64,000 bases of DNA from an uncultured Solirubrobacterales bacterium (GCA_963722965.1 CAVROX010000007.1:149040-213039), one strand, 5' to 3'. Counted from the first letter of the stretch, positions 45,428 to 64,000 are shown. The notes: generated by a model not told the origin, from the sequence alone. A program made the numbers and translations.

Positions 45428-45502
45428 CGGGGCGTAGCGAAGCCTGGTTATCGCGCCTGCTTTGGGGGCAGGAGATCGCTGGTTCAAATCCAGCCGCCCC
45501 GA
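45428..45502 (+). tRNA. tRNA-Pro (anticodon UGG)
   Basis: Folded by hand as a 75-nt cloverleaf. Acceptor CGGGGCG/CGCCCCG, D arm GCGA-AGCCTGGTTA-TCGC, anticodon arm CCTGC-TTTGGGG-GCAGG (TGG at 34-36, G37), T arm GCTGG-TTCAAAT-CCAGC, discriminator A. CCA is not encoded. Confidence 0.9.
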
Positions 45503-46013
45503 TTATGTAAGCCGCCGCGTCAAAGTGCCGCAGATCGCGTCACAGCAGCGGATTCTCGCATTTCTAGGCGGATCTCCGTGACTGCGGGGTTTCCGCACAG
45601 AGGGACATTCCGGGCCGCGTGTGCACGCAACCCGTAGCAAAGCCGTAGCAGTCCGCTTTCGTTTTGGGGTCCTGCTACGGCCCGAATCAGCGCCGACGGC
45701 CTGGTTGATGCATGGCTTTGCCTCGGCCCTTTCGATGAAACTTTTTGCTCTCGACGACGCCGGTCGCGTGACGAATGGCAACGGGCGGCGTTTCTGAGCC
45801 TCTGGCGGCGCCTGCGGCGCATCGGCTACGGCGGGCCCTCCGGTGGGCCGAGGGGCGCCGGTTGCAGCCTCTACCGCGACCTCGGCGGCTCGACAGCAGC
45901 CCAAATCTCGCGCTGCATTCCGACAAGCGCTACCGGCCCTCTCGCTCAGCTTGGACGTGATGGAGCCGGTGGCGCGGCTCGACGCGAGCGGGTCGGAGTA
46001 GTTCCGACCCCGG

Positions 46014-46286
46014 CTACTCGTCAGAACCGAGAACCGCCCGGGACGCCTCCAAGGACCGAGCCACCTTCTCTGGCCAGAACATGGGTGCCACCGCCAGCGC
46101 CGCGAGATTCGTCAGGGCAGCCATCGCGAGGAGGGTTGCCTCGACCACTTCTCCGCCGGTGGCGAACCATACCGCCGCCGCCCCGCACGTGATCGCGACG
46201 AACAGCACGAACCAGCGGCGCGCTGCCCAACGGGCGCGCCCCTGGCGTTGGTAGACCTCGGCCAGCTGGATCGCTGCGGCCGCCAT
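46014..46286 (-). CDS. small two-TM membrane protein
   Basis: 90 aa. 'RRWFVLFVAITCGAAAVWFATGG...ATLLAMAALTNLAALAVAPMFW'. No family recognised. Confidence 0.4.
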   Translation of the reverse strand: MAAAAIQLAEVYQRQGRARWAARRWFVLFVAITCGAAAVWFATGGEVVEATLLAMAALTNLAALAVAPMFWPEKVARSLEASRAVLGSDE

Positions 46287-46324
46287 TCGGGGGTCCGGTG
46301 GAGCCTCGCCCCTTCTTAGTGCTC

Positions 46325-47592: not shown

Positions 47593-47884
47593 ACACGCCA
47601 TCGGTCGCCGAACTAAAACGCCGTTTGGTAGGTTCTTTTCGACTTCGAACGTCCGCTCGAGACCGCCCGCTCGTCGTCGAACTCGACCTTCAGTCCCTCT
47701 AGTCCGACCGGCCCGTCATCCTGCACCATGAAGGTGACCTCCTAACGCAGGACGCGGCCACCCGATACGGTCGCTTCTTCCCTGCTCAGGAGGCCATTCT
47801 TCTTTTCGGACCGGACGGAAACGGCCTACCGGATCGGTGGATCCGGGCTTAGAGGAGCTACTCGCGGACGCGGAAGCTCGCGGG

Positions 47885-49139
47885 CTAAGTGCTGTCGGTC
47901 GAAAATCCCGTCCGGGTTTGAAGGAGACATAACGGCGGTAGCGAATCCGTTGGCGATGCCAGGCCCGAGCGCTCAGGAGATCGTGTTGGAGGAGGCAGAG
48001 CGCAAGGAGCTCGTGCATCGCGCTGCGTGCTATACGCGGCCGCACCGCGAGGTGTTGCGAGCGAAACTGGTGCTGCTGGCCGCGGAGGGTCATAGCAACG
48101 CGGAGATCGGTGAGCGGCTGAGGATGAGCACGAAGGCAGTCGGCCGGTGGCGAAGACGATTCCACGAGCGCCGTCTCGAGGGTCTTTCGGATGAAGCGCG
48201 GTCGGGTCGGCCACGCCGCTTTCCCCCCTCAGCAGATCGCCGAGGTCAAGGCGGTCGCCTGCGAGCCTCCGAGCGTGGGCGCTCCGCTCTCGCGCCGCTC
48301 AACGGCTGACGTTCACCGCCTCATCATCGAGCGCGGGATCTGCGATGCGTCGCACTCGACGATCGTGCGCTGGCTCAGGGAGGACGCGATCCGTCCCTGG
48401 CGCTACCGCTCCTGGATCTTCCTGACCGACCCCGACTTTGCGCAGAAGGCCGGTCGGATTCTGGACCTCTATGAGGGACGCTGGGACGGCAAGCTGCTGC
48501 ACCCGGGCGACTGCATCATCTCGGCCGACGAGAAGCCCTCGATCCAAGCGCGGCGCCGGATTCACGAGACGCTCCCGCCAGCCGCGGGCATCGGTCGCGG
48601 CCAGCGGGTCGAGCACACCTACAAGCGGGGCGGGGCGCTCACCTACCTGGCTGCCTGGGACGTGCGCCGCGGCCGCGTGTTCGGGCGCTCGGAGCCCAAG
48701 GGCGGGATCGAACCGTTTGACCGGCTCGTTTGGCAGGTGATGACCAAAGAGCCCTACGCCTCCGCCCGCCGCGTGTTCTGGATCGTTGACAACGGCTCCT
48801 CCCACCGGGGCAGGCCTCGATTGAGCGGCTCCAGGCCCGCTGGCCCAACCTGATCCTCGTCCACACGCCGGTCCACGCCTCCTGGATGAACCAGGTGGAG
48901 ATCTACTTCTCGATCGTCGGGCGCAAGGTGCTCACCCCGAACGACTTCGACTCGCTTGCCTCCGTCGCCCGCCGCCTGAACGAGTTCGAGCACCTCTACA
49001 ACGAGATCGCTGAACCGTTCGGATGGAAGTTCACTCGCGAGAATCTCAACGACTTGCTCGACCGGCTCGCCGAGCGACAAGCGGCCCAACTCACGCTCGC
49101 CGCCTGACCGAGAAGGAACTTATGACTGGCAGCACTAAG
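47885..49139 (+). mobile_element. IS630-family insertion sequence, copy 2 (about 1.26 kb)
   Basis: Ends 'CTAAGTGCTGTCGGTCGAAAATCC' and 'GGAACTTATGACTGGCAGCACTAAG', related to the copy 1 ends. Divergent orientation, 292 bp from copy 1. Confidence 0.85.
47950..49107 (+). pseudogene. IS630-family transposase (copy 2), two frame breaks
   Basis: ORFs 47950..48309, 48191..48853 and 48886..49107 together give a full-length homologue of copy 1. Breaks are at TTTCCCCCC (48220-48228) and near 48805-48812 ('DNGSSHRG' then 'QASIERLQARW...HASWMNQVEIYFS'). Confidence 0.8.
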
Positions 49140-50096
49140 TCGGGATCAGGCCATCGCCGTCGTTAGTCGAATAGTTGAGGAAAGTCCCTACCTTGACGGC
49201 CGCTACTACGAACGTATGGGGGTAGTACTGGGGCACGCGGGATCATTCTCAGTCTCAGAATGGACCCGGCGATGCGTGAGGGGGAGGGCGTTACCTTGGG
49301 CCGCGAGTGGGAGTAGCACCGGCACTGGCGCATCTGCAACACAATCTCGAGCGGCCGGCGGCGACGCTGCAGGAGCGCATGAGAGGAATTGGCTTCTGGC
49401 TCGAACGTCGCCGATGGAGGTTGAGGGCGAATGAGGCGGCGAGTAGTTCGGCTGGGTATGTCGCTGGTCGTGCTTGTCGCGGTCGTTGGGTTTGGTGGTG
49501 TGAGCGCGAGCGGCACTACCCTGCAGCCACGCCGATCGGCCTCTAGGGAGGCGGCGGTTTCCACTGCGCGGGCCACTCGCTCCGACCGGCGAGCAGCGGC
49601 GCAAGCGCGCCGCGAACCAGCGTCTCATCCCAGATCACCACCCGCCGCGGCACCTCCAGGCCCAACGCCCGACCCCAGAAGTACGGGCCACCCATCGCCA
49701 TCGCCTGCGCATGCAGCCGTCCCTTCCCTGCCTCCGCGAACTTTCCGCAGGTCGGCCACCGCGCCGCCCCGGTTAGGAAGGCTCGCAGCTCCTTAAACAC
49801 CGCCTTCAGAGCCCAGATAGGACCCAGGTCGGCTCAGCGTAGTGAGCGCTTGACATCCTGGTCTGCCTATGATCCAATTCCGCTCGGCTTCTCAGAACGC
49901 CCCGATCCGATTGCGATCCGGCCGTGTTCCAAGGGCCAGGAGAAGAGATAACGGCTCATCGCCCACCGGGCCAGGGACCCACGTTTTAGTGGATCGGGCG
50001 GGTTGGGATGCCAAGAGCAGAGGAGAGTTACGTGAGGACATCGTCCCGGCCGGTTGCGAGTTTCACCATCGGCAGGACCATTGGTGCCGCTGCACA

Positions 50097-50134
50097 AACT
50101 GTGTCCGCGGCCGCTAACTGTGTCCGCGGCCGCT
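50097..50134. repeat. 19-bp perfect tandem repeat (2 copies) containing GCGGCCGC palindromes
   Basis: 'aactgtgtccgcggccgct' at 50097-50115 and at 50116-50134, about 200 bp upstream of the giant-protein cluster. Confidence 0.95.
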
Positions 50135-50334
50135 AGGGGCGGGCGCGGACTCGCAGGCGGGTCGCAAGCTCAAAATCAAAAAAAAGTCCCCCCGTTTGGG
50201 AACGCGGTGGGCGCATTCTGCTTCGTTGGCCTATTCGCTACCTTTGCGGCAGGAGCCCGATCTGGCGCTTTCTCCCCTGGGACCGCCGGCCCCGCTTTGG
50301 CTCCCGGACTCATATCGGCGCCCGGAGTTTCCAG

Positions 50335-53277
50335 TTGAACTTTCGTCGTGCCGATCCCAGAGACCGCCCCCGGCTGCCCGCGGAAGATGGAGCATGCAGG
50401 CCGACCTCCACTCGAGCAGCCTGCGCCCTCGCCATCATGTGCTCGTCCCTTGCGGTCCTCGCATTCAATGCTTCCCCAGCCGCCGCCGCGTTGAAGTTCC
50501 AGTCGGCAGGCCAGCTTCCGTATGGGTTCAACTTCCTGCTTGCCGGGGGCGTCGCCATCAACGATCACAACGGTCACATCTACGTGGCCGATTCGGGTTC
50601 GGCCCGCGTACTGGACTTTGCCTCTCCCACGGACGAATCGCCCGCGGAATGGGACGGCTCGAACACCCCTGCGGGGTCGTTCGGCGGACACGTATCGGTG
50701 GCAGTCGATAACTCAACCGGCGACGTTTACGTCGCCGATCTTGGCCATGCGGTGATCGACAAGTTCGACGACGAAGGCAATCTGATCACCAGCTTTGGCG
50801 ACACCACGCCGAGTCCCAACGGGCAGTTGGCTGGCTCCGCGACCCCGGCCGGGTCGTTTTCACCCCCCGAAGACGGCTACAGCTCGTTTGCGATCGCCGT
50901 CGATCAGGCTACCCATGATCTCTTCGCGGTTGACGCCCACCATCAAGTCATCGACGTCTTCGACGAAAACGGCGCCTATTTGCGCCAGATCACAGCGAGC
51001 GCAGGCGGTCTTTACCGCTATGGGGGCGAATACACAACAGCCCTCGCCGTGGACTCGAGCGGGAATGTCTACGTCGGCGACTGGGCAGGGCCGAACCTCG
51101 TCTTTCAGTTCGACTCCTCTGGCGGCTTCGTGCGGACGCTCGACGGGTCCAATACACCTGATGGAGATTTCTCCCCCAATAGCACGGGCTGCTGCTTGAT
51201 CTCAGTTGCGACCGACGATGCGTCGGAAAGGCTCTTTGTCGGCTCCCTAGCCAACAGCGATTTCGACGTCTTTGACAGCTCGGGCAACTTCATCCCGCCC
51301 CAGGGCCTCGGAGCCGGTTCCTACGTTAGTGGCATTGCGGTGGACCAGTCGACCGGTGACGTCTATGTATCCAACGGCGGTAGCGTCAATATCTTCAAGC
51401 CGATCACGGTTCCCAACGTGAGCACCGGAGCACCCACCGAAGTCAGTGCCACCGCCGCGACCCTAAACGGACACATGGACCCAGCTGGCGGAGGGGGGAT
51501 CACCGAATGTAACTTCGAATACGAAAGTCCATCATCCGGCCCACAGCTTGCTGCGTGCTCGACCAATCCGCCATCCAATCCCCCATATGCGTCCCCGACC
51601 GGCGTAAGCGCGACTGTGTCAGGGTTGAGCCCGGGTACAAAATACACCTATCGCCTGGTCGCGGCGAATGCGAATGGCAATAACACGAGCGCAAGCGAAA
51701 GCGCGGTCACAGCCGGGCGCTACCAATTTGATGCCGACATCGGTGCGTCGGGATCCGGCGATGGACAGCTGCTGAATCCACAGGACGTTGCGGTTGACGA
51801 CTCGACCGGGGATATCTACGTGGCGGATACCGGCAATCACCGCGTAATGAAATTCGACTCTTCCGGCCATTTCCTTGCCGCGTGGGGTTGGGGCGTTACT
51901 GACGGGGCGCCGATAAGCGAGGTCTGCACATCTGGTTGTCGCGCCGGCATTTCCGGGTTGGGTGCGGGTCAGTTCAGATCGCCGACTTTCATCGAAGTCG
52001 ACAATTCGTCGGGACCTTCGGCCGGCGACGTCTACGTCGCCGACGTCTCCGACAACGTCGTGCAAAAGTTTGAACCGTCTGGGAGCCTTGTGACCGAATG
52101 GGGCGTCAAGGGGGCTACAACTTATGGCGCTGGAATCGCGGGAATGGCGGTGAGCACGAACGGATTGCTAGTTATCGAAGAAGAGGGCGGGCACCCGATC
52201 GCCATTGACTCGTTCGGAAATGTAGTTTCGGGACAGACCGGCATCGCGATTGACACTTCGACGGATGACAGGTTTATAGACGTCGGCAACAGTATTGAAG
52301 CGTCGAACGTAGTCGGCACAACCTATGACGTGTTCGGCCTAGGAAACCTGCACTCCTCAGCGGGGGTTGCTTTCGATCAATCGAGCAAGACGGTCTACGT
52401 CGCTGATACGGGGGATAACGAGATTGCTGCATTCATTCCTCGACCGGCCCCGAAACTGACGACTGCACCGGTTACCAATCCCGGTGCGACCTCTGTGACG
52501 GTGGACGGCACGGTCGATCCGAACGACGGCGGAGAAGTGACTGACTGTCACTTCGAATACGGTACGAATACCAGCTACAACCTGGGAGATGTCCCTTGTT
52601 CCCCAGGTGTGCCACTCTCGGCGCCGGCCAATGTCAGCGCAGTCATCAGCGGCCTGTCGCCCTTTACCACATACCATTTCCGCTTGGCGGCGACCGGCTC
52701 GAACGATCTCGGATTTTATAGCTATAGCCCCGATCTTAGCTTCACGACGGTCGAAGGCGGCGCTCCGGTCATCGATGACACATTCGCCTCTGACCCAACG
52801 GAAACCAGCGCGACCCTGGGAGCGGAAGTGAATCCGAACTTTGGCGCGACGATTATCCGTTTTGAATATGGGAATAACCTGTCCTACGGGCTCCGAACCG
52901 CCCCAACGGAACCGATCGAAGGCGACGGCGTCGACCACCATGCTGCAGCTCCGGTATTTGAACTGGCCCCTGGAACGACCTATCACTTCCGGGTCGTCGC
53001 GACGAATTTCGCCGGTACTACCAAAGGGCCAGACGAGACTTTCACAACCCACGCGCGGCAGCCCGCGTCGCCCGCTCCGACGCCGCCCGGGACCCCGATT
53101 CCCCAGATCCCGGGACCGTCACCTGTAACTGCACCCTGCAAATCGCATTACGTCCGGCGCCGCGGAAAGTGCATCAGGCGGAAGCATCATCCACGGAAGC
53201 ATCATCCACGGAAGCATCGACGCAACCACGATCGCCCCGACCCAAGACGACATCGCGATTGGAGGCTTAGTCGGTGA
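50335..53277 (+). CDS. giant secreted protein A: two NHL-type beta-propellers, three FN3-like domains, His/Arg-rich tail
   Basis: 980 aa with the signal-like 'CSSLAVLAFNASPAAAA'. NHL blades recur ('GHIYVADSGSARVLDF', 'GDVYVADLGHAVIDKFD', 'GDIYVADTGNHRVMKFDSSG', 'TVYVADTGDNEIAAF'). FN3-like units recur ('ATLNGHMDPAGGGGITECNFEY...SGLSPGTKYTYRLVAANANG'). The tail is 'CKSHYVRRRGKCIRRKHHPRKHHPRKHRRNHDRPDPRRHRDW'. The start codon is uncertain: TTG 50335, or the internal ATG at 'MCSS'. Confidence 0.85.
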   Translation: MNFRRADPRDRPRLPAEDGACRPTSTRAACALAIMCSSLAVLAFNASPAAAALKFQSAGQLPYGFNFLLAGGVAINDHNGHIYVADSGSARVLDFASPTDESPAEWDGSNTPAGSFGGHVSVAVDNSTGDVYVADLGHAVIDKFDDEGNLITSFGDTTPSPNGQLAGSATPAGSFSPPEDGYSSFAIAVDQATHDLFAVDAHHQVIDVFDENGAYLRQITASAGGLYRYGGEYTTALAVDSSGNVYVGDWAGPNLVFQFDSSGGFVRTLDGSNTPDGDFSPNSTGCCLISVATDDASERLFVGSLANSDFDVFDSSGNFIPPQGLGAGSYVSGIAVDQSTGDVYVSNGGSVNIFKPITVPNVSTGAPTEVSATAATLNGHMDPAGGGGITECNFEYESPSSGPQLAACSTNPPSNPPYASPTGVSATVSGLSPGTKYTYRLVAANANGNNTSASESAVTAGRYQFDADIGASGSGDGQLLNPQDVAVDDSTGDIYVADTGNHRVMKFDSSGHFLAAWGWGVTDGAPISEVCTSGCRAGISGLGAGQFRSPTFIEVDNSSGPSAGDVYVADVSDNVVQKFEPSGSLVTEWGVKGATTYGAGIAGMAVSTNGLLVIEEEGGHPIAIDSFGNVVSGQTGIAIDTSTDDRFIDVGNSIEASNVVGTTYDVFGLGNLHSSAGVAFDQSSKTVYVADTGDNEIAAFIPRPAPKLTTAPVTNPGATSVTVDGTVDPNDGGEVTDCHFEYGTNTSYNLGDVPCSPGVPLSAPANVSAVISGLSPFTTYHFRLAATGSNDLGFYSYSPDLSFTTVEGGAPVIDDTFASDPTETSATLGAEVNPNFGATIIRFEYGNNLSYGLRTAPTEPIEGDGVDHHAAAPVFELAPGTTYHFRVVATNFAGTTKGPDETFTTHARQPASPAPTPPGTPIPQIPGPSPVTAPCKSHYVRRRGKCIRRKHHPRKHHPRKHRRNHDRPDPRRHRDWRLSR

Positions 53278-56200
53278 GTGTCGCCTCCTTCAAACGGTCT
53301 CCGGTGGGCGCTTTCACCGTGCGGCAGCAACTGGTCATCGCTGCAACGGTGTTTGTCGTGCTCCTCAGCGGAATGCTGTGGCTTGTTGCCCCCGCGGAGG
53401 CGGAAGTTACGCACGTCTTCTCGACGACGTTTGGCGCCACCGGATCCAGCCCGCCAGATCCTTACCCGCTTTCCCAACCGACTGACACAGCTGTCGATAA
53501 CTCTACGGACAGCTCGGCCCATGACATCTACGTCACTGATGGGGCAAACCACTGGGTCGAGAAGTTCGACCCGACCGGCCAGCTGATTTGGATCATAGGC
53601 AAGGAGGTCAACAAGACTGCAGTTGAATCTTTCGGGACCGAAGCCGAACAAAACCTTTGTGTGAGCGCCTCGGGCGACGAATGTCAGCCCGGAACCTCTG
53701 CGGCGTCGCCAGGGGCATTTGCGACGCCCACCTTCGTGGCTGTCGACAGTTCGAGCAGCGCCTCTGAAGGCGACCTCTATGTCGGCGATACGGGTAATCA
53801 CAACGTCAGCAAGTTCGAAGCAGACGGCGCTCTTGTCACCTCTTGGAAAGCCGGCGGCCAACTGTTGGGCTTTCCAGAACTCGCGGGGCTGGCCGTCGAC
53901 GGTTCCGGCACCCTCTACGTCCTTAATGGGACACAGATGTCCAAGTTTGCCCCGGCAGGCGCATCCGCGGGGGAATTCGAAACAGCTGCTGGAACTGCAG
54001 CGGACGGCATCGCTGTTGACTCGACGGGCGCGATTTACAAGGCGCGCGGGAACGGAGCGATCGTTAAGTTAAACGCCTCTGGCAGCGAACTAGTCGAAAA
54101 AATCGGATGCTTTTGCGCGACGGGCGTTGCCGTGGACCCCAGCGGGGATGATCTCTATGCTTCCGAAGGTGCAACGGTCTCGCGGTACAGGTTCGACGGC
54201 TCGCCGGTGGAAACATTTGGCTCCGGGCAGCTGAGCGGCGCGGAGGGGCTATCCGTCGACGTCGAAACTGGTGACGCATTCGTTGCGAACACGGGCGCAG
54301 GAAGCGTCGCTGTCTTCGGGACTCTCACCACACCTAACGTAACAGCGAAACCAGCCACGGAACTGACGCCGGGGACTGCGACCCTTAACGGCCACGTCGA
54401 TCCAGTCGGAGCCGGCGAAGCGACGGACTGTCATTTTGAATACGTGTCGGCAGGAGCCTATCGCTCGACGGGTTTCGCGAACCTCTCCACAGGAGGCCGG
54501 GTACCCTGCGCCGAAGGGTCGACGATGTCCACAGCCACCGACGTGCATGCAGTGCTAACCGGGCTCAGTCTTCTCACGACGAGGTACCGGTACCGACTCG
54601 TCGCCGAAAACGCCAACGGCGTCAGCACGAGCTTGGCCGAGCCACTGGAACCGGTGTCCCACGTCTTCGCCTTCTCCTTCTCAGGCTCTGGTACCGACGC
54701 ACTGTCGGAACCAAGCGACGTTGAAGTCGATCAGACAAGTCACGACATCTACGTAACCGACCCACCCGATCACCGAGTCGAGAAGTTCAGTCCTGCCGGC
54801 GAATTTATTCTGATGTTTGGCAAGGAAGTCGATCAGAGCACCGGTGGTGATGTCTGCTCCGCGGCGAGCGGAGACATCTGCACAGTGGGTGCGTCGGCGG
54901 CGAGTCCAGGGGGATTCGAACAGCCGACATACCTAGCAGTAGACAGTTCCAGTGGCGACGTATACGTTGCCGACACCGGCGACAATCTGGTATCTAAATT
55001 TGACGCTTCAGGGCACATCATCGCTAGTTGGGGTCAGGGAGGCCAGAAGGACGGATCCGACGCGACAGAACTGCCCGTCTTCGGTCCCATCGGTGGCATC
55101 GTAACGGATCCCAATGGCAACCTCTACATATTTGGTACGCATTACGCCACCGATATTTGGACATACTCTCCTAGCGGAAAATTCGATGGATGGTTTGAGC
55201 ACGCGCTCGGCATATTTAACGCGGGTGAAACCGAAGTGTCAATCGCACCGACACTTACCTTCGACCCCGCCAGTAATGAACTCTATGAAGTCAGCGAAAC
55301 CGAACAGCAGATCAACCACTACAACTCTAACTGCCTTCCCTGTGATCCGGTGGACACGTTCGGCAGCGGCTACCTCAACACCCCGGCAGGGTTATCGGTT
55401 GACGGGTCCTCGCACGCGGTTTATGTCGCCGACCGATCGGCAGACGACGTTGCTGTTTTCGATGACGCTCGGCCGGTCACGACAACCAGTGCTCCTACCG
55501 AAGCGACGGAAACGGCTGTCACTCTCACCGGGCATGTCGACCCCGCTGGCCGGGGGGCCATCACGACCTGCTTCTTTGAATATGGGTTCGATAGGACCTA
55601 CGGTCACATCGTGCCCTGTGAACCGGACCCCTCCGCGAACCCCCCATCCTCTCACTTCACCGCTCCAACGCAGGTAACGGCGAGGGTTACCGGTCTGTCT
55701 TCTGCGACCCGGGATCACTATCGTCTGATTACTGCTAACTCTGCCAACGGAATCGGCGTTGGCTTAGACGAAACCTTTACCACCACACAGGCTCCTACTG
55801 TCGACGGGATTGCGTCGGCAAATCTCACCGCGACAACCGCAGACCTCAACGCTCAGGTTAACCCCAACGGGCTCGAAACGACCTACCGGTTCGAATACGG
55901 GCCGTCGACGGACTACGGTAACTCGGCGCCGGTGCCCGATGGAACGATCGCCGCGGGCAATGTCGATCAGGGGGTCGCGGTTCACCTCGAAGGGCTCACG
56001 CCCCATGTCGTCTATCACTATCGCCTGGTGGCGACAAATGCCGATGGAGCCACCGTAACCGGTGACTTGACGTTTAACTTCTATCCGCCCGCTTGTCCGA
56101 ACGAAAACGTACGCCAGCAGACCCGGTCCAACTATCTGCCCGACTGCCGTGCCTACGAGCTCGTCTCCCCCGAAAATGCGGGCGGCACACAGCTCTTCCC

Positions 56201-58352
56201 GGGGGGGCCGAACACCGGCCTCGCCTCCAGTCCGTCGCGCTTTGCCTACACGGGGCTCTACTCCTCGATTCCCGGATCTGGCGGCAGCCCAATTGATAGC
56301 AACGGCGACCTCTACGTTGCGAGCCGGACGAGCACCGGCTGGGTCAGCCGTTACGTTGGGCTCCCAGCCAGCCAATCTGCCCTCGACGGCGGGCCGGTGC
56401 AGGGGCCGCCAGGCTCGGCCAGCGGGGCCGCCAATACGGGGACGGCATCGGATGTCTCGGCCGACGCGGATACCTTCCCGAGTCTGATCGAGAATGGGGT
56501 CATGACCGATCCGGCGATGGATAGATTCCTGGTCTGGAATGGGCCACCGGCCGCATCGGACGCGCCGTTTGTCATGAGCGCGGAAGGCAGCCTCCTCGAT
56601 CGCTGGCCGACCAATCTGGGCACCACGCCCAGCGGCAGCTATCCCCCCGAATTGGGCATATACGGCGGTAACACCGCTCCTGGTGGCGAGCACGCGCTCG
56701 ACTGTCCGGCGGGCCAGTCGGCTACCAGCATCTTCTCTTATAACAGCCTTTGCCCCGGCGACGCGACGGCGTCGGCCAATCTGAGCCATTTCGTCTTCGC
56801 CACCGAGTGGAATGCTTTTGCGGTCGATGGCCAGCTGGGGCCGCCGGGATCCGTCTATGACAATGACACCGAAACCGACACGGTCGCAGTGGCTTCGGTG
56901 CTTGGAAGCGGAAACCCAATTCCGAGCGAGCCGAGTGATCCGGTTGGTGATCCGCTGCAGATTCCTGCGGTGTCAAGCGATGGGTCACACATCCTCATGG
57001 CGAGCGGCGCGACGGGACCGTGCGGTGCTGCGAGCTGTCCCATACCATACTGCGGCAGCGCCTTCTATGGAGATGTCGACCGCTGTCCAATGCAGACCAG
57101 CCACCTCTACATGCGGGTCGACGGCGCCGTTACCTACGACGTGTCACAGGGCCATGACGTTGAATTTGTCGGCATGAGCCCGGACGGTTCCAAGGTGTAC
57201 TTCACTTCGAGCGAACAGCTGACTCCGAACGACCACGACACCAGCACAGACCTATACATGTGGAGCGAAGAAACAAATGCCCTCACCTTGATTTCGATTG
57301 GCAGTGGCGGATCAGGTAATAGCGACGCGTGTAATGCGAGCTTCACCACAAGGTGCGGAGTGGTGCCATATTCTAGCCATACCTACTGCCAGCTCTCCAA
57401 CGCGGACGGCGGCAACTGCCTCTCCGATAACTCCATCGCCCAAAACGGTGACATCTATTTCTACTCGCCCGAACAACTCGACGGCTCGCGTGGGATTCCG
57501 AACCAACAGAACCTCTACGATTATCGCGAAGGGCACCCGCAGTTCGTCGCCACGCTGACGGGCGGTCCCTACTGCAGCGGCGAAATTGGTGCCTTCGGGG
57601 CTTGTACAGAAGGCCCGATCGTGAGGATGCAGATAACGCCCAGTGACACCCATATGGCGTTCGTCACCGCCAGCCAGGTGACCCAGTACGAAAACGCGGG
57701 TCACCTGGAGATGTACACCTACGAACCCTCCACCCGCGATCTTGTTTGCGTCTCCTGCATCCCGAGCGGCGCCCCGCCGACCTCCAATGTTGGGGCCAGC
57801 CAGGACGGCCTCTTCCTTACCGATGACGGGCGGACCTTCTTTACCACCGAAGATGCCCTCGTCTCGACCGACACCAACAACCGCCAGGATGTCTATGAGT
57901 ACGTCGACGGGCGCCCGCAGCTGATCACCCCGGGCACCGGTGATACGCAGGGAACGACACTTGGCATCCTCGGTTCTCCTGGGCTCGTCGGGGTTAGCGC
58001 CAACGGCACCGACGTCTACTTCTCAACGTTCGACACCCTCGCCAGCCAGGATCACAACGGGAGCTTCCTTAAGTTCTACGACGCCCGCGCAGGCGGCGGC
58101 TTTCCGGCCCCGGCGCCGCAGCCTCCCTGCGAAGCCGCCGACGAGTGCCACGGCGCTGGCAGCTCACCGCCCCCAGCCCCGAAGATCGGGACCTTGGCGC
58201 CCTTGGGGGCCGGCGCCGGTGGGCACAAATCCAGACATGCCAAGCATCGGAGGCATCGGAGGCATCGGAAGTATTCGCGAAGGCACCGCGGGGCTCAACA
58301 CGACCCAGGGCGCCGATCGGACGACGACGGCCACGCGGGACTTGGCCGATGA
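53274..58352 (+). CDS. giant secreted protein B: NHL propellers, three FN3-like domains, PD40/TolB-like C-terminal region, His/Arg-rich tail
   Basis: 1692 aa. GTGA overlap with protein A. N-terminal TM/signal 'LVIAATVFVVLLSGMLWLVAPAEA'. NHL blades ('HDIYVTDGANHWVEKFDPTG', 'GDLYVGDTGNHNVSKFEADG', 'HDIYVTDPPDHRVEKFSPAG'). FN3-like 'ATLNGHVDPVGAGEATDCHFEY'. After 'CPNENVRQQTRSNYLPDCRAYELVSP' come PD40-like repeats ('SSDGSHILMAS', 'SPDGSKVYFTSSEQL...DLYMW'). The tail is 'GGHKSRHAKHRRHRRHRKYSRRHRG'. Confidence 0.9.
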   Translation: MSVASFKRSPVGAFTVRQQLVIAATVFVVLLSGMLWLVAPAEAEVTHVFSTTFGATGSSPPDPYPLSQPTDTAVDNSTDSSAHDIYVTDGANHWVEKFDPTGQLIWIIGKEVNKTAVESFGTEAEQNLCVSASGDECQPGTSAASPGAFATPTFVAVDSSSSASEGDLYVGDTGNHNVSKFEADGALVTSWKAGGQLLGFPELAGLAVDGSGTLYVLNGTQMSKFAPAGASAGEFETAAGTAADGIAVDSTGAIYKARGNGAIVKLNASGSELVEKIGCFCATGVAVDPSGDDLYASEGATVSRYRFDGSPVETFGSGQLSGAEGLSVDVETGDAFVANTGAGSVAVFGTLTTPNVTAKPATELTPGTATLNGHVDPVGAGEATDCHFEYVSAGAYRSTGFANLSTGGRVPCAEGSTMSTATDVHAVLTGLSLLTTRYRYRLVAENANGVSTSLAEPLEPVSHVFAFSFSGSGTDALSEPSDVEVDQTSHDIYVTDPPDHRVEKFSPAGEFILMFGKEVDQSTGGDVCSAASGDICTVGASAASPGGFEQPTYLAVDSSSGDVYVADTGDNLVSKFDASGHIIASWGQGGQKDGSDATELPVFGPIGGIVTDPNGNLYIFGTHYATDIWTYSPSGKFDGWFEHALGIFNAGETEVSIAPTLTFDPASNELYEVSETEQQINHYNSNCLPCDPVDTFGSGYLNTPAGLSVDGSSHAVYVADRSADDVAVFDDARPVTTTSAPTEATETAVTLTGHVDPAGRGAITTCFFEYGFDRTYGHIVPCEPDPSANPPSSHFTAPTQVTARVTGLSSATRDHYRLITANSANGIGVGLDETFTTTQAPTVDGIASANLTATTADLNAQVNPNGLETTYRFEYGPSTDYGNSAPVPDGTIAAGNVDQGVAVHLEGLTPHVVYHYRLVATNADGATVTGDLTFNFYPPACPNENVRQQTRSNYLPDCRAYELVSPENAGGTQLFPGGPNTGLASSPSRFAYTGLYSSIPGSGGSPIDSNGDLYVASRTSTGWVSRYVGLPASQSALDGGPVQGPPGSASGAANTGTASDVSADADTFPSLIENGVMTDPAMDRFLVWNGPPAASDAPFVMSAEGSLLDRWPTNLGTTPSGSYPPELGIYGGNTAPGGEHALDCPAGQSATSIFSYNSLCPGDATASANLSHFVFATEWNAFAVDGQLGPPGSVYDNDTETDTVAVASVLGSGNPIPSEPSDPVGDPLQIPAVSSDGSHILMASGATGPCGAASCPIPYCGSAFYGDVDRCPMQTSHLYMRVDGAVTYDVSQGHDVEFVGMSPDGSKVYFTSSEQLTPNDHDTSTDLYMWSEETNALTLISIGSGGSGNSDACNASFTTRCGVVPYSSHTYCQLSNADGGNCLSDNSIAQNGDIYFYSPEQLDGSRGIPNQQNLYDYREGHPQFVATLTGGPYCSGEIGAFGACTEGPIVRMQITPSDTHMAFVTASQVTQYENAGHLEMYTYEPSTRDLVCVSCIPSGAPPTSNVGASQDGLFLTDDGRTFFTTEDALVSTDTNNRQDVYEYVDGRPQLITPGTGDTQGTTLGILGSPGLVGVSANGTDVYFSTFDTLASQDHNGSFLKFYDARAGGGFPAPAPQPPCEAADECHGAGSSPPPAPKIGTLAPLGAGAGGHKSRHAKHRRHRRHRKYSRRHRGAQHDPGRRSDDDGHAGLGR

Positions 58353-61183
58353 GCACTATTAAGGCAACTCGATTCCGCTACCGCGTTGTCGCTGCGGCTG
58401 CTGCGCTGTTGTTGTCCCTCGCAGCGTCCGGTCCGACCGCTGCACGGGCCGACACGCCGATTACCGCCTTCTCGGCCCTGCCGTCGACGACCCAAGCGGG
58501 CGGCCACCCGGATGTGGAGATCTACTTCTCGGTCGCAAACAGAGAGGTGCAGGGAAGCTCGAACCCATGCGAATGCGAGGATGCGAAAAACGCCACCGTC
58601 CACTTCCCTCCCGGTTTCATCGGCAATCCCCACGCCACGCCCCAGTGCACCCTCGCCGACTTCTCATCCGATGATTGCCCGATCGACTCCCAGGTCGGCA
58701 TCGTCCACATCATCGCTAGCAACCCCGCCTTTCCCTTCAATGCTGCGGTCTACAACCTGATCCCGCCCCCCCAGGACGCTGGTCTCCTCGGATTCAAGGT
58801 CTTCTTCTACAACGCGCCCCAGTTCACGGTGCTGAGCTCGCGGACCGGAAGCGATTACGGGCTCGACGCTACGGTTACCTCTATCTTCCACTATTACCCG
58901 CTGGTGAGCTTTCAGGAGGATCTATGGGGTGTACCGGCAAACCCGCTTCACGATCCCCTGCGTCTCAACCCGCTCTTTAATCCCAACGGGCCAGGCCACT
59001 CGTCCTATCTGAACTTTGGGAACTGCGACGCCAACGGCAACCCGAGCACCACCGATCCAAGCACGATGGTGGAACCGTGCGGCGGTGGAATCCCTCCTGA
59101 AGTGTCGAACAGCCCGGAAACCCCCTTCCTCCAAAACCCGACCACCTGCGATTCTCCGCTTGGATCCTCTCTGGACGTGCTCTCCTACGACGGTGGAGAA
59201 ACCCACGAAGCGGGCACCTGGCCGAAGATGACCGGATGCGAACGTCTCAGCTTCAACCCGAGTCTCTACGCGCAGCCGACCACCACCGCTACCGACTCCC
59301 CCTCTGGGATCGACGTCAATTTGACCGTTCCCCAGCAGCTCAGCCCCTCGGTCCCATCTCCGACCGAGCTGCGATCGGCCACGGTGACCCTCCCGGCCGG
59401 GTTTTCGATCAACCCGAACGCGGCTGACGGCAAGACCGCCTGCATGGATGCCGAGGCCAGGTTCGGCACAGAAGAAGAAGCCCAGTGCCCGGAATTCTCG
59501 AAGGTAGGGAGCCTTGAGATCGACAGCTCAGCGCTTCCTGGCCCATTGCCCGGTTTCGTCTATCTCGGCCAGCCCCTCGCGGGCAAGCGCTACCGCATCT
59601 TCCTCGCCGCCGACGGATTTGCCACCCACATCAAGCTCGCCGGCACTGTCGCCGCGGACCCCCAGACCGGACAGCTAACGATTTCGTTCTCGGAACTGCC
59701 GGAGAGCCCCCTCACGGCCTTCAACATGCACTTCTTCGGCTCCGAACGTGGGCTGCTCGCTACCCCTGCTCGCTGTGGAACCTTCCCGGTAACCAGCACC
59801 TTCACCCCGTGGGACTCGAGCCTAGCGCCCGAGACATCGACCCAGTTCTTCACACTGACATCCGGTCCTGACGGGCAAGCCTGTCCCGGCTCGACGAGGC
59901 CCTTCTCTCCCAGCCTTCAGGTTGGCTCGCTCAGAAACACCGCCGGTGCTCACTCTCCTTTCTCGCTCGAACTAAACCGTGACGACGGGAACCAGAATTT
60001 GAGCGGGCTCACCGTCTCGACTCCACCTGGCCTCTTGGCGACGCTGCGTGGGGTTCCCTACTGCTCCGACGCAGCGCTTGCCGCGGCAGCATCCTCTGGC
60101 TATACGGGTCTTCAGGAGGAGGCGAACCCCAGCTGCCCGGCCGCGTCCCAGATCGGGACGGCGACAATCGGCGCTGGGGCCGGCTCTCACCCGGTGTACG
60201 TCCCTAGCACCGTGTACCTCGCCGGTCCTTACAACGGCGCGCCACTCAGCCTGGCGGTGATCACTCCGGTGGTTTCGGGTCCCTATGACCTCGGCAACGT
60301 CGTCGTCAGGGCGGCTCTGCGGGTCAACCCCACGACGGCGCAAATCACCGCCGTATCGGACCCACTACCCCAGATTCTCGAAGGCATCCCGCTGCGGTTG
60401 CGGTCGGTCCTGCTCGAACTCAACCGCCCCAACTTTACACTCAATCCCACCAGCTGCTCGCCCTTAGTGGTAAACACCGAAGTCTCGGGCTCAGAAGGCG
60501 CCCTTGCCAAGCCCTCTCAGGGCTTTCAGGTCGCCAACTGCGGCTCCCTTTCCTTCGCCCCAAAACTCACCACTCGGATCTCCGGTTCCACCAAACACAC
60601 TGGCAACCCGGAGCTTAAGACAGAACTGACCTTCCCCCAGAGCGGCCCCAACGCAAACGTCTCCCGTGTATCGGTGACCCTTCCGCACTCCGAGCTCCTC
60701 GACAACGCCCACATCAAGAGCCCTTGCACCAGAGTTCAGTTTTCGGCCGGCAAATGTCCGCCTGGATCTCTACTCGGCTTCGCCAAAGCCGAAACCCCTC
60801 TACTTGAAAGACCGCTCGAAGGACCGGTCTATTTACGTGCCAACGGCGGCGAACGAAAACTCCCAGACATCGTCGCTGAGCTAGAAGGACAGATCGACAT
60901 CGACCTGGTCGGCTTCGTTGGATCCGTCCATGGCCAGCTGCGCACCACTTTCAACACCATCCCCGATGCCGCGGTCTCCCGCTTCACCTTGGATCTCGAT
61001 GGGGGTAAGAAGGGCCTCCTGGTCAACTCCGTCAACCTTTGCTCGGCTACCGAGCACGTCAACGCCGAGATCGAGGGCCAGAACGGCAAGACCGCGAATC
61101 AGAATCCGATCCTCGAAACATCCTGCGCCAAGAAGAACAGGCGCAAGTCTGGACCTCACCATAACCGGAGGGCCCGCAGATGA
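58349..61183 (+). CDS. giant secreted protein C: repeated Cys-pair modules of unknown family, basic tail
   Basis: 944 aa from ATG 58349 (ATGA overlap with the B stop). The track ORF start at 58145 lies inside B. Signal 'RVVAAAAALLLSLAASGPTAARA'. Three to four roughly 200-aa modules share 'v.lP.GF..NP......C......C P..S.vG...', for example 'VHFPPGFIGNPHATPQCTLADFSSDDCPIDSQVG' and 'VTLPAGFSINPNAADGKTACMD...QCPEFSKVG'. It ends 'SCAKKNRRKSGPHHNRRARR'. Confidence 0.85.
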   Translation: MSTIKATRFRYRVVAAAAALLLSLAASGPTAARADTPITAFSALPSTTQAGGHPDVEIYFSVANREVQGSSNPCECEDAKNATVHFPPGFIGNPHATPQCTLADFSSDDCPIDSQVGIVHIIASNPAFPFNAAVYNLIPPPQDAGLLGFKVFFYNAPQFTVLSSRTGSDYGLDATVTSIFHYYPLVSFQEDLWGVPANPLHDPLRLNPLFNPNGPGHSSYLNFGNCDANGNPSTTDPSTMVEPCGGGIPPEVSNSPETPFLQNPTTCDSPLGSSLDVLSYDGGETHEAGTWPKMTGCERLSFNPSLYAQPTTTATDSPSGIDVNLTVPQQLSPSVPSPTELRSATVTLPAGFSINPNAADGKTACMDAEARFGTEEEAQCPEFSKVGSLEIDSSALPGPLPGFVYLGQPLAGKRYRIFLAADGFATHIKLAGTVAADPQTGQLTISFSELPESPLTAFNMHFFGSERGLLATPARCGTFPVTSTFTPWDSSLAPETSTQFFTLTSGPDGQACPGSTRPFSPSLQVGSLRNTAGAHSPFSLELNRDDGNQNLSGLTVSTPPGLLATLRGVPYCSDAALAAAASSGYTGLQEEANPSCPAASQIGTATIGAGAGSHPVYVPSTVYLAGPYNGAPLSLAVITPVVSGPYDLGNVVVRAALRVNPTTAQITAVSDPLPQILEGIPLRLRSVLLELNRPNFTLNPTSCSPLVVNTEVSGSEGALAKPSQGFQVANCGSLSFAPKLTTRISGSTKHTGNPELKTELTFPQSGPNANVSRVSVTLPHSELLDNAHIKSPCTRVQFSAGKCPPGSLLGFAKAETPLLERPLEGPVYLRANGGERKLPDIVAELEGQIDIDLVGFVGSVHGQLRTTFNTIPDAAVSRFTLDLDGGKKGLLVNSVNLCSATEHVNAEIEGQNGKTANQNPILETSCAKKNRRKSGPHHNRRARR

Positions 61184-61503
61184 CTTCCCCAGTTTTGCGA
61201 ACTGGCACGCTCGATTCGTCCCCCGACTCAGTTGAGGCCTGTTTGATGGAGGGGGACCCGGCAACTTCAAGACTCCCCGACGTGCCGGTTGACTGTTTCA
61301 CCGTTGATGTCCTCGAAAGCAGCAGGGGTCTAATACAGAATAGTGACTCCCTCTGCAGCGCCCGCAAGAAGGCGACCGCTCAGGTGGCGGGTCAAAGCGG
61401 TAAGGCTGCCGCCCAGCGCGGCCCACTCCGGATTTCCTGCAGCAAGGGCGACAATGCCCGCAAAGCCCACAGCACTCACAAGAATCGAAGGTCCCACCGA
61501 TGA
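61180..61503 (+). CDS. 107-aa protein homologous to the C-terminal module of protein C
   Basis: ATGA overlaps at both ends (with the C stop and the D start). 'LPDVPVDCFTVDVLESSRGLIQNSDSLCSA...GQSGKAAAQRGPLRISCSKGDNARKAHSTHKNRRSHR' parallels protein C 'IPDAAVSRFTLDLDGGKKGLLVNSVNLCSA...GQNGKTANQNPILETSCAKKNRRKSGPHHNRRARR'. Confidence 0.5.
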   Translation: MTSPVLRTGTLDSSPDSVEACLMEGDPATSRLPDVPVDCFTVDVLESSRGLIQNSDSLCSARKKATAQVAGQSGKAAAQRGPLRISCSKGDNARKAHSTHKNRRSHR

Positions 61504-64000
61504 CCTTCTCACTAAGAGCGCGCTCCGATCGGCGCGCAGCCGTGTTGGGTGGGAGAAATGGGTGCGGGGGCATAGCTCGTGCGGTGCCGGTGTGGATCGG
61601 CGCTGTTATCTCATTCGCACTCGGAGCTGTCATGGTGGCTGCCCCTTCCGCTGCGCCTGCGGAACCTCTAACCACGACGGATCACTGCCCCAACGCGCAC
61701 GTTCGCCAGCAGACCGGAGCTGCCTTACTCCTCGACTGCCGCGCCTACGAGCTGGCCTCCGCCGCCAACACCGGCGGCTACGATGTCGAGTCTAACCTGG
61801 TGCCGGGCCAAACGCCGTTTTCTGGTTATCCCGAGGCGAAAGAACCGTCGCGGATTCTCTACAGTGTTCATGAAGGGGCGATCCCGAACACCGGCCATCC
61901 GACTAACGATGGTGTCGACTCTTACGTAGCCACCCGCACCGAAAACGACTGGAGCACCGAATACGTCGGCATCCCTGCAACCGACCCCTTCGCCAAGGGC
62001 CCATTCGCCTCAACCCTGCTGGAAGCAGACGCAAGCCTTGACACCCTGGCCTTCGGCGGCGAAGAAATCTGCTCGCCCTGCTTTGGCCCCGGCCAGACCG
62101 AAACCGGTGAGCCGATCCACCTGCCAAACGGAGAACTCGTGCAGGGCATGGCTGGCTCGATCCCCCAGCCCACCGCCAAGCCCGAAGGCTACATCGGCAA
62201 GGACCTCTCCGCCAACGGCGAACACTTCGTTTTTGGCTCCAAATCTCAGTTTGAGCCCGAAGGCGACAACAACGGCACCGATCTGTCGATCTATGACCGA
62301 AATCTAAAGACCGAAGAAACCAAGGTCGTCTCCAAGACCCCCTCCGGAGCAACGATGACCGGAGCGGGCATCGGTGAGCTCGATATCTCCTCAGATGGCT
62401 CTCACATCCTGATCGGCCAGCTCGTCTCTGAAGAAGGCAATGCCAAGTACTGGCACCTCTACATGAACGTCGGGGACTCTTCCAAAACGAACGAACTGAC
62501 CCCCGGAGCCAAAGAAGGCGTCCTCTTTGACGGGATGACCTCAGATGGATCCAAGGTCTTCTTCTCTTCCGAAGAGCACCTGACGGGCGAAGACACCGCC
62601 CATAGCGGTCCAGACATCTACATGTGGGAAGAAGGCAAACCGCTGACGCTGATCTCCGGGGGCGAAAAAGAAGAAGCGGGCCAACCGGGCGACACGGCCA
62701 GCTGTGATCCCGCCGCAAACACCAAACACGTCCACTGGAACACGACCGGATCTGAAGAAAATTGCGGCGACGTCGCGATCGGCGGCGGTGGGGGAGTGGC
62801 CTCAGGGGACGGGACGATCTTCTTCCTCTCCCCGGAGCTTCTCGACGGCACCGAAGAATCTCGTGACGGTGTCGAGAACGCTCCCAACCTCTACGTGGTC
62901 CGGCCGGGCGGGACGCCGCACTTCGTGGCGACACTTGAATCAAGCGCAAATGCTCCACTTCCAGAACCACAACATCCGTTCCTGCGTTCAATTGGCTCAT
63001 TCATCACACCGACGGGGGTGGCGGTGGAACACGCTTCGGGAGACGTCTATATACTCGAAATTGGCAATGTATCCTTCGGTCACGTCGCGTACGTTTCGAA
63101 ATTCACCGACACAGGTCAACCGGTTTTGAGCTTTGGGGTAGAAGGAAAGATCTCCGTCGGTGGGGCCTATACCGAATATTCAATCCCCGGGGAGATAGCC
63201 GTTGATCAGTCGACCGGTGACCTCTACGTGCCGGAGCCATTGGAAGGAGCCGTCAAAAAATTCAACTCCTCCGGGGCCAACATCTCCGAAATCAATGGCG
63301 TCGGGCTTCCCACCGGCGTGGCAGTGGACTCGACAGGACAAGTCTACGTTGCTGGGCTGCTTGGCGGAGTCAGTGTGTTCAGCTCTAGTGGCAGCCTGAT
63401 CAGCAGCTTCTCTACGATCGAATACCCGACGGGGGTCGCGGTTGGGCCGGACGGGAGGATCTACGTCGTCGATGGTGGTGTCATCGCTGGAAGTGGCACC
63501 GCAGAGGTGTACGACGCATCGGGCAACGATTTGGGCCAACTCACCGGGAATCCGTCCCAGGGGGTCGCCGTGGATCCGTTAACCGGCAACGTATACGTCG
63601 ACGAAGGTGATCAGGTGGCGGAGTTCGACCCCTCGGGCGATCCGATCGGCGATCCGATCGGCGCCGGTCTGCTGAGCGGTTCGATCGGACTAGCGGCCGA
63701 TTCAGACTCTCTGTACGTTTCAAATCCCGGAAAGACCAACCTTGCCTCATACGGGCCGGCCGCCATTCCGCCAGACCCCAGCACCGATAACCCGATGGTG
63801 ATCGACAGCGTCAGCGCTCCGGGCGTCGCCCGATCTGCCGACTTCGAGTTGACGCCGTCGGGTGAATTTGCGGTCTTCACCTCGACCCTGCCGTTGACGG
63901 GCTACGACAGTGCCGGCCACCGGGAGGTATTCCGCTACGCTCCGACCGGAGGCGGGATCGAATGCGCCTCCTGCAATCCGAACGCGACGCAGGCAAGCGC
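61500..64000 (+). CDS. giant secreted protein D (3'-partial, runs off the window): PD40-like region, NHL propeller, second PD40-like region
   Basis: Not in the ORF track because there is no stop in the window. Hand translation of frame 0 is open from ATG 61500 to 64000. 'RAVPVWIGAVISFALGAVMVAAPSAAPA' is the signal. 'CPNAHVRQQTGAALLLDCRAYELAS' is the same module as in B. PD40-like 'SSDGSHILIGQ' and 'TSDGSKVFFSSEEHL...DIYMWE'. NHL blades 'GDLYVPEPLEGAVKKFNSSG', 'GQVYVAG', 'GRIYVVDG', 'GNVYVDEGDQVAEFDPSG'. At the window edge it reads 'IECASCNPNATQAS'. The exact start is uncertain (alternatives GTG 61542/61584, ATG 61632). Confidence 0.8.
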   Translation, partial: MTFSLRARSDRRAAVLGGRNGCGGIARAVPVWIGAVISFALGAVMVAAPSAAPAEPLTTTDHCPNAHVRQQTGAALLLDCRAYELASAANTGGYDVESNLVPGQTPFSGYPEAKEPSRILYSVHEGAIPNTGHPTNDGVDSYVATRTENDWSTEYVGIPATDPFAKGPFASTLLEADASLDTLAFGGEEICSPCFGPGQTETGEPIHLPNGELVQGMAGSIPQPTAKPEGYIGKDLSANGEHFVFGSKSQFEPEGDNNGTDLSIYDRNLKTEETKVVSKTPSGATMTGAGIGELDISSDGSHILIGQLVSEEGNAKYWHLYMNVGDSSKTNELTPGAKEGVLFDGMTSDGSKVFFSSEEHLTGEDTAHSGPDIYMWEEGKPLTLISGGEKEEAGQPGDTASCDPAANTKHVHWNTTGSEENCGDVAIGGGGGVASGDGTIFFLSPELLDGTEESRDGVENAPNLYVVRPGGTPHFVATLESSANAPLPEPQHPFLRSIGSFITPTGVAVEHASGDVYILEIGNVSFGHVAYVSKFTDTGQPVLSFGVEGKISVGGAYTEYSIPGEIAVDQSTGDLYVPEPLEGAVKKFNSSGANISEINGVGLPTGVAVDSTGQVYVAGLLGGVSVFSSSGSLISSFSTIEYPTGVAVGPDGRIYVVDGGVIAGSGTAEVYDASGNDLGQLTGNPSQGVAVDPLTGNVYVDEGDQVAEFDPSGDPIGDPIGAGLLSGSIGLAADSDSLYVSNPGKTNLASYGPAAIPPDPSTDNPMVIDSVSAPGVARSADFELTPSGEFAVFTSTLPLTGYDSAGHREVFRYAPTGGGIECASCNPNATQAS

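Follow-up and report, generated by a model that had tools for sequence, protein, structure and literature searches.

A five-gene cassette for putatively exported beta-propeller and Ig-like proteins, present in several divergent copies in uncultured Solirubrobacterales

Among described systems of exported multi-domain proteins, the closest to the gene cluster reported here are the MSCRAMM and pilin-type adhesins (ClfA, SdrD and SpaA-like proteins; PDB 2vr3, 5jq6, 10ps and 3lso), in which serial Ig-like sandwiches form stalks for binding domains, the PD40-type propeller proteins (TolB, S9 peptidases, tricorn, sortilin), the secreted NHL/FN3 proteins of the ScyF kind, and the two-component S-layers, represented by SlaA/SlaB of Sulfolobus and the Ig-like HPI layer of Deinococcus. 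We analysed a 64,000-nt stretch of DNA from an uncultured Solirubrobacterales bacterium (GCA_963722965.1 CAVROX010000007.1:149040-213039; hereafter the window), which carries from position 50335 to its end a co-directional cluster of four large genes, A to D, and a 107-aa open reading frame (ORF). This cluster represents one copy of an ancient cassette of five genes (N-T1-C1-T2-C2), which occurs in several divergent copies per genome in uncultured Solirubrobacterales. A is of the N type and carries NHL propellers; B (T1) and D (T2) share a large propeller, the T module; C (C1) is a chain of Ig-like sandwiches.

The likeness of C to the adhesins lies in its being an exported chain of Ig-like sandwiches, parts of which match them in Foldseek with a probability of 0.95-0.98, at template modelling (TM) scores of just 0.10-0.25. 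Unlike them, C has no LPXTG or hydrophobic sorting signal, is encoded as the partner of a propeller protein, and is built of a double-sandwich unit of about 210 aa for which there is no Pfam model. It would also have disulfide pairs in the place of the isopeptide bonds of pilins. The top Foldseek matches of C are the legs of integrin alpha and the MG domains of alpha-2-macroglobulin (E-value = 6 × 10-9 to 10-7), which are likewise Ig-like chains. However, the TM-score to these is at most 0.15, and to alpha-2-macroglobulin at most 0.1, and C exhibits no FG-GAP propeller, no CxEQ thioester (scanned as C[GL]EQ) and no alpha-2-macroglobulin Pfam domain (E-value ≤ 10).

The T module resembles the S9 peptidases, tricorn, sortilin and perhaps TolB as a PD40-type propeller (22.3 bits; Foldseek probability 1.0). 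Against TolB the same probability comes with a TMq of 0.18 and a TMt of about 0.3, and the module, at about 700 aa, is far above the size of the TolB propeller; its best TM-score (0.31) is to the 10-bladed sortilin. Unlike TolB, the T-module proteins have neither an N-terminal alpha/beta domain nor a tol-pal neighbourhood, their neighbours being N-, T- and C-type genes, and unlike the S9 peptidases they have no Peptidase_S9 match and no alpha/beta-hydrolase domain. Motifs of its own (CPN...RQQ and FYDAR.GGGF...C.AADECHG) and, in T2, an inserted NHL propeller further set the module apart from its PD40 relatives. Six-bladed NHL propellers followed by FN3-like domains are shared with the ScyF-like proteins (NF035926), but the scores against this model (137, 102.7 and 27.2 bits) are below its cut-off of 350, and neither a PEP-CTERM-like C-terminus nor a scytonemin context is present. 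As for the Rhs/teneurin toxins, there was no YD/Rhs or toxin match in Pfam, and TEN_NHL scored 12.5 bits in the D orthologue against a cut-off of 27.1. The anti-phage defence models of PADLOC gave only partial NHL-repeat matches of 15-18 bits to PD-T4-6. With the two-component S-layers the cassette shares large, acidic, exported, beta-rich subunits and a logic of canopy plus stalk; it differs from them in having no sequence or specific fold kinship, no known anchoring domain, five subunits and several copies.

The original prediction had taken the cluster for an undescribed cell-surface system. Pfam, NCBIfam, PADLOC, PHROGs, PDB sequence, Foldseek and literature searches, any of which might have assigned it to a characterised system, all fail to place it: no known system matches the set, and the literature searches found no description resembling the cassette. 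The folds of its parts are of known classes (NHL, FN3, PD40 propeller and Ig-like sandwich), and in kind its products are exported multi-domain binding or structural proteins. New are the cassette itself, which appears undescribed, at least one large unannotated domain family, and possibly a new retention signal.

Gene order in the window and in related genomes

All genes of the cluster lie on the plus strand. Gene A (50335-53277, 980 aa) has a TTG start, which is plausible with a GGAG 9 nt upstream. It is followed by gene B (53274-58352, GTG start, 1692 aa), gene C (58349-61183, 944 aa from the ATG at 58349, a longer GTG-start ORF beginning at 58145), the 107-aa ORF (61180-61503) and gene D (61500-64000), of which 833 codons are visible, the rest being beyond the window edge. 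These coordinates, and the four 4-nt overlaps joining the ORFs (GTGA at 53274, ATGA at 58349, 61180 and 61500), agree with those first reported. The overlaps had been taken to imply stoichiometric co-expression of a complex. However, by ORF coordinates five further junctions in the window overlap by 4 nt in the same way (e.g. 6962/6965, 8068/8071 and 20542/20545). Since such overlaps are common in the window, they indicate an operon-like arrangement and not a stoichiometry, and we do not retain that part of the prediction. The adjacency of T and C genes and the domain fusions described below are better evidence for joint working, still without being proof of a complex.

The ratios of non-synonymous to synonymous substitution rates (dN/dS), computed against the related locus L001 (86-93% identical), are 0.17 for A, 0.12 for B, 0.15 for C and 0.16 for D. 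A to D are real genes under purifying selection, with hundreds to thousands of homologues each.

A scan of the GTDB species genomes gave at least 597 matching loci, of which the best 80 are all from uncultured Solirubrobacterales/Actinomycetota, mostly soil metagenome-assembled genomes (MFD and SMAG names); there is no cultured carrier of the cassette among the relatives fetched. The window's own modules served to classify the ORFs of 82 related loci, among which N-T-C-T-C is the order most often seen. A strong T gene stands directly upstream of C in 97 of 144 C genes, with a weaker T match in about 28 more, and the T-C junctions are mostly of -4 or -8. Short fragments of C in the related loci are mostly pieces of frameshifted full-length C genes and not separate genes. 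The C genes at position 3 are closer to the C of the window in 36 of 37 cases, and those at position 5 are closer to the C2 of L001, again in 36 of 37. This position-specific orthology indicates that the cassette is an old five-gene unit that was duplicated as a whole.

Gene order is thus strongly conserved in the related loci, so that on the point of co-occurrence the prediction is not refuted. The system is not a singular one, since the cluster in the window represents one copy of a multi-copy family. The closest relative (contig_35736) has three tandem cassettes over about 60 kb, and two complete chromosomes (2.87 and 3.09 Mb) carry at least four cassettes each. The family is defined by two successive pairs, each of a T gene and, immediately after it, a four-unit C gene, and by polybasic tails. 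In the window B, C, the relic 107-aa ORF and D are visible, and the second C gene is found in L001. There, the 1040-aa orthologue of D (88% identical) overlaps by 4 nt a following 922-aa gene of the C2 type, 41% identical to C. A C2 gene is expected just past the window edge.

Fusions of the types N-FN3-C, T-FN3-C and T-C occur among the relatives, most of them without an internal signal peptide at the junction, which supports a joint function of the fused parts.

Architecture of the encoded proteins

The proteins A, B, C and D all begin with a hydrophobic segment that ends in A-x-A, consistent with the signal or transmembrane segments first proposed, and the putative cleavage site of A (AAA/LKF) is kept in its orthologue. 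Protein A then comprises an NHL propeller (aa ~56-360), an FN3-like domain (359-460), a second NHL-type propeller (~467-700), two FN3-like units (~706-910) and a polybasic tail (aa 931-980, net charge +17, 8 His). Protein B follows the same plan, with a signal/transmembrane segment, an NHL propeller, FN3, a second NHL propeller and two FN3 units, to which the T module and a polybasic tail are added. In D a signal peptide is followed by the first part of a T module, an inserted NHL propeller, and the beginning of the second part of the T module.

NHL (PF01436) scores 96 bits in A, 79.3 in B and 36 in D against a Pfam cut-off of 20, which places the predicted NHL propellers in this family. The FN3-like domains, described from the outset by their FEYG start and YRLVA end, were borne out as well: the fn3 and Pur_ac_phosph_N matches of Pfam fall on the FEYG...YxYRLVA units, three each in A and B. 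Matches to SGL/Lactonase models are weak and partial, and below the cut-offs except in A (32.4 against 26.3).

The T module of B (aa 935-1640, 56076-58193) is a large PD40-type beta-propeller with no catalytic domain. The C-terminal 750 aa of B are homologous to D, the NHL propeller of D being inserted within the module. It starts with the motif CPNENVRQQT...LPDCRAYELVSP and ends with FYDARAGGGF...C.AADECHG, and 1022 homologues were found. The PD40 score of 22.3 bits is that of the module of B scanned alone, against 20.4 for the whole of B, the cut-off being 20.9; together with the Foldseek probability this agrees with the PD40-like regions of the original prediction. An AlphaFold2 model of the module (pLDDT 81, pTM 0.83) is all-beta, with a disordered tail after it. 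Its Foldseek matches are propellers only (S9 peptidases, TolB, tricorn, sortilin and GH74), at TM-scores of 0.2-0.3. A reading of the module as a peptidase or GH74 enzyme was therefore rejected, a catalytic domain being absent from the sequence and from the model.

Protein C consists of a Sec signal peptide (TAARA/DTP) and four tandem units, each of about 200-260 aa, and ends in a short basic tail (KKNRRKSGPHHNRRARR). Its 20 cysteines are read as 10 sequential pairs; 18 of them are invariant in an alignment of 56 sequences, and 16 in a more diverse one of 28. Profile-profile comparison of the four sub-alignments shows the units to be homologous to one another (hhalign probability 77-99%). The "unrecognised repeated Cys-pair module" noted earlier in C is therefore correct, as is its being unrecognised: no match was found in Pfam (even at E-value ≤ 10), NCBIfam, PADLOC or PHROGs, and C and its 28-sequence profile gave chance matches only (E-value > 0.2) against PDB sequences. 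The AlphaFold2 model of C (pLDDT 86, pTM 0.72) is all-beta, a chain of beta-sandwiches. In the PDB and BFVD, Foldseek returned only multi-Ig-like chains with TM-scores up to 0.25 (integrin alpha legs, alpha-2-macroglobulin MG domains, ClfA/SdrD, phage Ig/FN3 proteins). Since these are generic, a specific fold relative of C cannot be named.

Clustered at 50% identity, the relatives of C number 7710 at E-value ≤ 10-3 and 2665 at E-value ≤ 10-30. They are annotated as hypothetical proteins of Actinomycetota metagenome-assembled genomes, with the one exception of an automated label, "Cu/Ag efflux protein CusF". Giant relatives of up to 7161 aa (P0121-P0133) contain 8-16 stretches homologous to residues ~250-930 of C, 16 of them in P0133 (6729 aa) and 15 in P0122 (7161 aa). 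The C unit is thus also used as a long tandem array.

The 107-aa ORF had been counted as part of the predicted complex. Its residues 32-107 align with residues 871-944 of C (41% identity, E-value = 10-14), its dN/dS is 0.73 against 0.12-0.17 for A to D, and the other cassettes that were inspected have no gene separating C from T2. The ORF is a decaying C-terminal fragment of a C-family paralogue, probably without a functional part in the cassette, and we do not retain it as a component.

The mature bodies of the proteins are acidic (isoelectric point 4.1-4.8, net charge -35 to -131). Their C-termini, in contrast, form polybasic tails (net +9 to +17, up to 8 His) that lack any hydrophobic stretch. 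The median number of lysine, arginine and histidine residues in the last 30 aa is 16 for N, 19 for T1, 10 for C1, 17 for T2 and 10 for C2, compared with 4 in 483 flanking ORFs. Sorting by sortase relies on a C-terminal LPXTG-type motif with a hydrophobic segment, which the signal needs, and a short basic tail after it (PMC5817068). No C-terminal LPXTG is found in A, B or C, the LAATG of A (aa 784) being inside an FN3 unit. Within the T module of D there is an LPLTG (aa 797-801; 63888-63902), and the orthologue in L001 runs about 240 residues further; given this internal position it is not a sorting signal. Nor is there any Pfam or NCBIfam match to a cell-wall-binding domain (SLH, LysM, GW, WXL, CWB) in A to D. 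Pfam, NCBIfam and motif scans of A to D likewise bear out the earlier statement that they contain no LPXTG signal, SLH domain, enzyme, toxin or transporter.

Upstream region and neighbouring genes

A conserved non-coding element of about 170 nt (49923-50095, plus strand) lies about 290 nt upstream of A. It is also found upstream of the first cassette gene in five related loci (L083 1486-1650, L001 1452-1575, L048 1927-2048, L035 3388-3510 and L010 2143-2265). Its motif is a hairpin or palindrome, GGGCCAGGG-ACCCAC-N-GTGGATC, followed by GCAGAGGAG-N-ACGTGAGGACATCGTCC; across the loci the palindrome is given as GATCCAC-N-GTGGATC, with changes from CAC/GTG to TGC/GCG in two of them. RNAalifold on the six sequences yields two hairpins with a few compensatory pairs and a covariation term of about zero. 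The element holds a GGAG and a short ORF with a GTG start, the codons of which change mostly non-synonymously, so that its conservation looks to be at the nucleotide level. An Rfam scan of positions 45000-64000 detected the tRNA only and nothing for the element, and a scan for promoters gave no sigma-70-like site ahead of A. Going by its sequence, the element is a candidate TetR operator or leader RNA, and may be both. The syntenic relative shows homology at the nucleotide level only from position 50476, which is already within A.

Between the element and A, a 19-nt unit (AACTGTGTCCGCGGCCGCT ×2, 50097-50134) stands in perfect tandem duplication, which is missing in the aligned related loci. 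On the minus strand, a terminator-like hairpin followed by eight T (50186-50203), unusual for a sequence of 60-68% GC, lies about 130 nt upstream of A.

In 30 of 61 related loci the 1.5 kb preceding the first cassette gene contain a gene of the TetR family. In 16 of these 30 it is a divergent tandem helix-turn-helix TetR of about 440 aa with two TetR_N domains (for instance L083 1-1224, L041 4271-5605, L008 1518-2870 and L026 3548-4843, all on the minus strand), and in some other loci three to five single TetR genes stand in an array ahead of the cassette. A search of the window with the TetR proteins of its relatives detected no homologue. The corresponding site is occupied by two IS630-family remnants in inverted orientation (~46303-47470, minus strand; ~47998-49151, plus strand), with DDE_3 and HTH_32 matches. 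They stand head to head with arms that are 73-83% complementary, both transposase frames being broken or frameshifted, and look like the product of a local rearrangement. A tRNA-Pro (UGG) is located at 45427-45503 on the plus strand, 4.8 kb upstream of A. The DUF1015-family gene adjoining it (44302-45281, minus strand) is apparently split into two overlapping ORFs. Of the two, the piece at 44736-45281 was tested against the family and matches DUF1015 positions 26-162; the piece at 44302-44769 seems to be the continuation. The split could be a frameshift or mark a pseudogene.

Other neighbours are seen in related genomes. In the closest relative, cassettes 1 and 2 are separated (L083 20976-22568, L001 324-1061) by an extracytoplasmic function (ECF) sigma-70 gene, two ORFs of 124 and 266 aa, and a gene for a 245-aa protein, a stand-alone version of the final unit of C (residues ~688-935). 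Stand-alone genes for this last unit also occur upstream of cassettes in L048 and L044. The ECF sigma factor was considered as a general component of the cassette and discarded, because it is present in only 1 of 76 flanking ORFs. Directly downstream of some cassettes there is a trio of genes for small exported proteins (L009 20211-22448; similar in L011, L012, L013, L024, L025 and L030). One member, of about 205 aa, has an N-terminal transmembrane segment and short repeats (S(V/L)..(R/K)IA.NAV....V.DGSLT); the other two are paralogous, of about 260 aa, and none of the three has a Pfam match.

Possible role and origin of the cassette

Tentatively, we read the cassette products as a surface or extracellular binding assembly that is retained non-covalently, a reading that we find plausible though short of probable. 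After export by Sec, the proteins would take on their fold outside the cell, as strongly acidic all-beta bodies stabilised by disulfides. B and D, the PD40-propeller proteins, would each pair with the Ig-like rod encoded next (C and C2, respectively), the rod acting as a stalk or spacer, and A, B and D would expose their NHL propellers and FN3 domains as ligand-binding heads. With no covalent or membrane anchor, the polybasic tail of lysine, arginine and histidine would be the likeliest means to hold the acidic body, by charge, on polyanionic polymers of the envelope or on neighbouring subunits. Teichoic acids are polyanionic. A TetR-family repressor of its own probably controls when each cassette is switched on, and with such separate gates the cell could show one version or another of a surface binding structure. 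In the copy of the window no TetR gene is detectable, and IS630 copies lie in its upstream region. A more specific form of the proposal is an order-specific extracellular apparatus of monoderm Actinomycetota, that is, a defined hetero-oligomer of two propeller-rod pairs and an NHL/FN3 protein, anchored in a new way, through the polybasic tails of highly acidic bodies, and present in several TetR-gated variant copies. It would be made in part from families that have no Pfam or NCBIfam model and no PDB sequence match (the C rod, and the CPN...RQQ T propeller, which Pfam sees only as one near-cut-off PD40 repeat). We regard this form as possible but doubtful.

Several points weigh against the proposed retained assembly. 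The function is deduced from composition and synteny only, and the signal peptides were judged by eye. The roles of rod and stalk are analogies only, because the Foldseek TM-scores are low. Holding the bodies on polyanionic polymers supposes that the envelope of these bacteria, which are uncultured, carries anionic wall polymers. Extracellular DNA, clay or humic substances are equally conceivable targets of the tails, which might also be pro-regions that are cleaved off. In metagenome assemblies a frameshift at a 4-nt overlap can produce an artefactual fusion, and two of the fusions (P0143 and P0262), which retain a basic tail between T and C, may be such assembly artefacts. Finally, the N gene is missing from some cassettes.

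The same signal peptides, lack of an anchor motif and strongly basic tails on acidic bodies would also suit a released matrix or coating, in which the tails bind extracellular DNA, exopolysaccharide, clay or humics, so that the products serve as a glue for biofilm or soil attachment and not as an ordered envelope structure. The soil-metagenome source (MFD sample names) agrees with this, and the giant relatives, in which C-like stretches can number as many as 16, are reminiscent of the fibres of a matrix or an adhesin. The tight conservation of the five gene positions and the T-C pairing suggest a defined assembly instead, and we consider the glue unlikely. If, on the other hand, the genes were merely co-transcribed, their products would be independent secreted binders or enzymes, such as lactonases of the NHL/SGL type or propeller hydrolases for polymer scavenging, and would form no complex. 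The 4-nt overlaps, as ordinary operon features, the weak SGL/Lactonase matches, and the presence of GH74 xyloglucanases and S9 peptidases among the Foldseek matches are all compatible with this. But the SGL/Lactonase matches are partial and, A excepted, under the cut-offs, those to S9 and GH74 cover the propeller only, at low TM-scores, with the alpha/beta-hydrolase domain absent, and position-specific conservation and domain fusions argue for a joint function. Independent action thus appears improbable to us. Hardly better placed, and if anything slightly less credible, is an S-layer-like two-dimensional lattice of propeller canopy subunits on Ig-like stalks, with paralogous cassettes providing lattice variation. 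Large, acidic, exported, beta-rich proteins with Ig-like domains, the pairing of canopy-type with stalk-type genes and the several variant copies per genome are in its favour. Against it, A to D lack an SLH domain or any other domain known to anchor S-layers, a lattice with five different large subunits per cassette would be unusual, a literature search found no mention of an S-layer with Thermoleophilia (the class containing Solirubrobacterales), and the GC content at third codon positions (GC3) is below that of the core genes, which speaks against the very high expression typical of S-layer genes.

The composition of the cluster had also been given another meaning. Its codons are indeed A/T-richer, as originally stated, with a GC of 0.59-0.63 against 0.66-0.72 elsewhere and a GC3 of 0.67-0.74 against 0.78-0.90, and the nearby tRNA-Pro and IS630-like copies are confirmed. 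These features led to the suggestion of horizontal acquisition, a matter of origin and not of function, in which mobile elements would recently have brought in a genomic island beside the tRNA-Pro. However, GC is lower in the cassette than in its flanks in 56 of 71 related loci. Low GC is poor evidence of transfer because it is a trait of the cassette family. Moreover, the best 80 relatives all belong to one group, the uncultured Solirubrobacterales/Actinomycetota; a tblastn search with C gave no match in the plasmid and phage collections; the closest relative has the same cassette between two other cassettes, in a different upstream context; and neither an integrase nor direct repeats of the tRNA were seen. 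A recent acquisition is thus very improbable, and we set this suggestion aside. The low GC3 fits weak codon bias, hence modest expression, better than it fits recent transfer.

The retained binding assembly that we favour would concern a large and ecologically relevant family. Solirubrobacterales are among the more abundant Actinomycetota of soil. The genomes are small (2.6-3.8 Mb), yet with at least four cassettes of about 17 kb they devote at least 2% of their length to undescribed secreted proteins, and in public data the C module accounts for 7710 clusters (at 50% identity), for which Pfam, NCBIfam and PDB have no counterpart. Understanding the cassette could show how these bacteria attach to or sense their surroundings. 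It could also reveal a possible new mode of holding proteins on a Gram-positive-type envelope, and provide the databases with at least one large new domain family.

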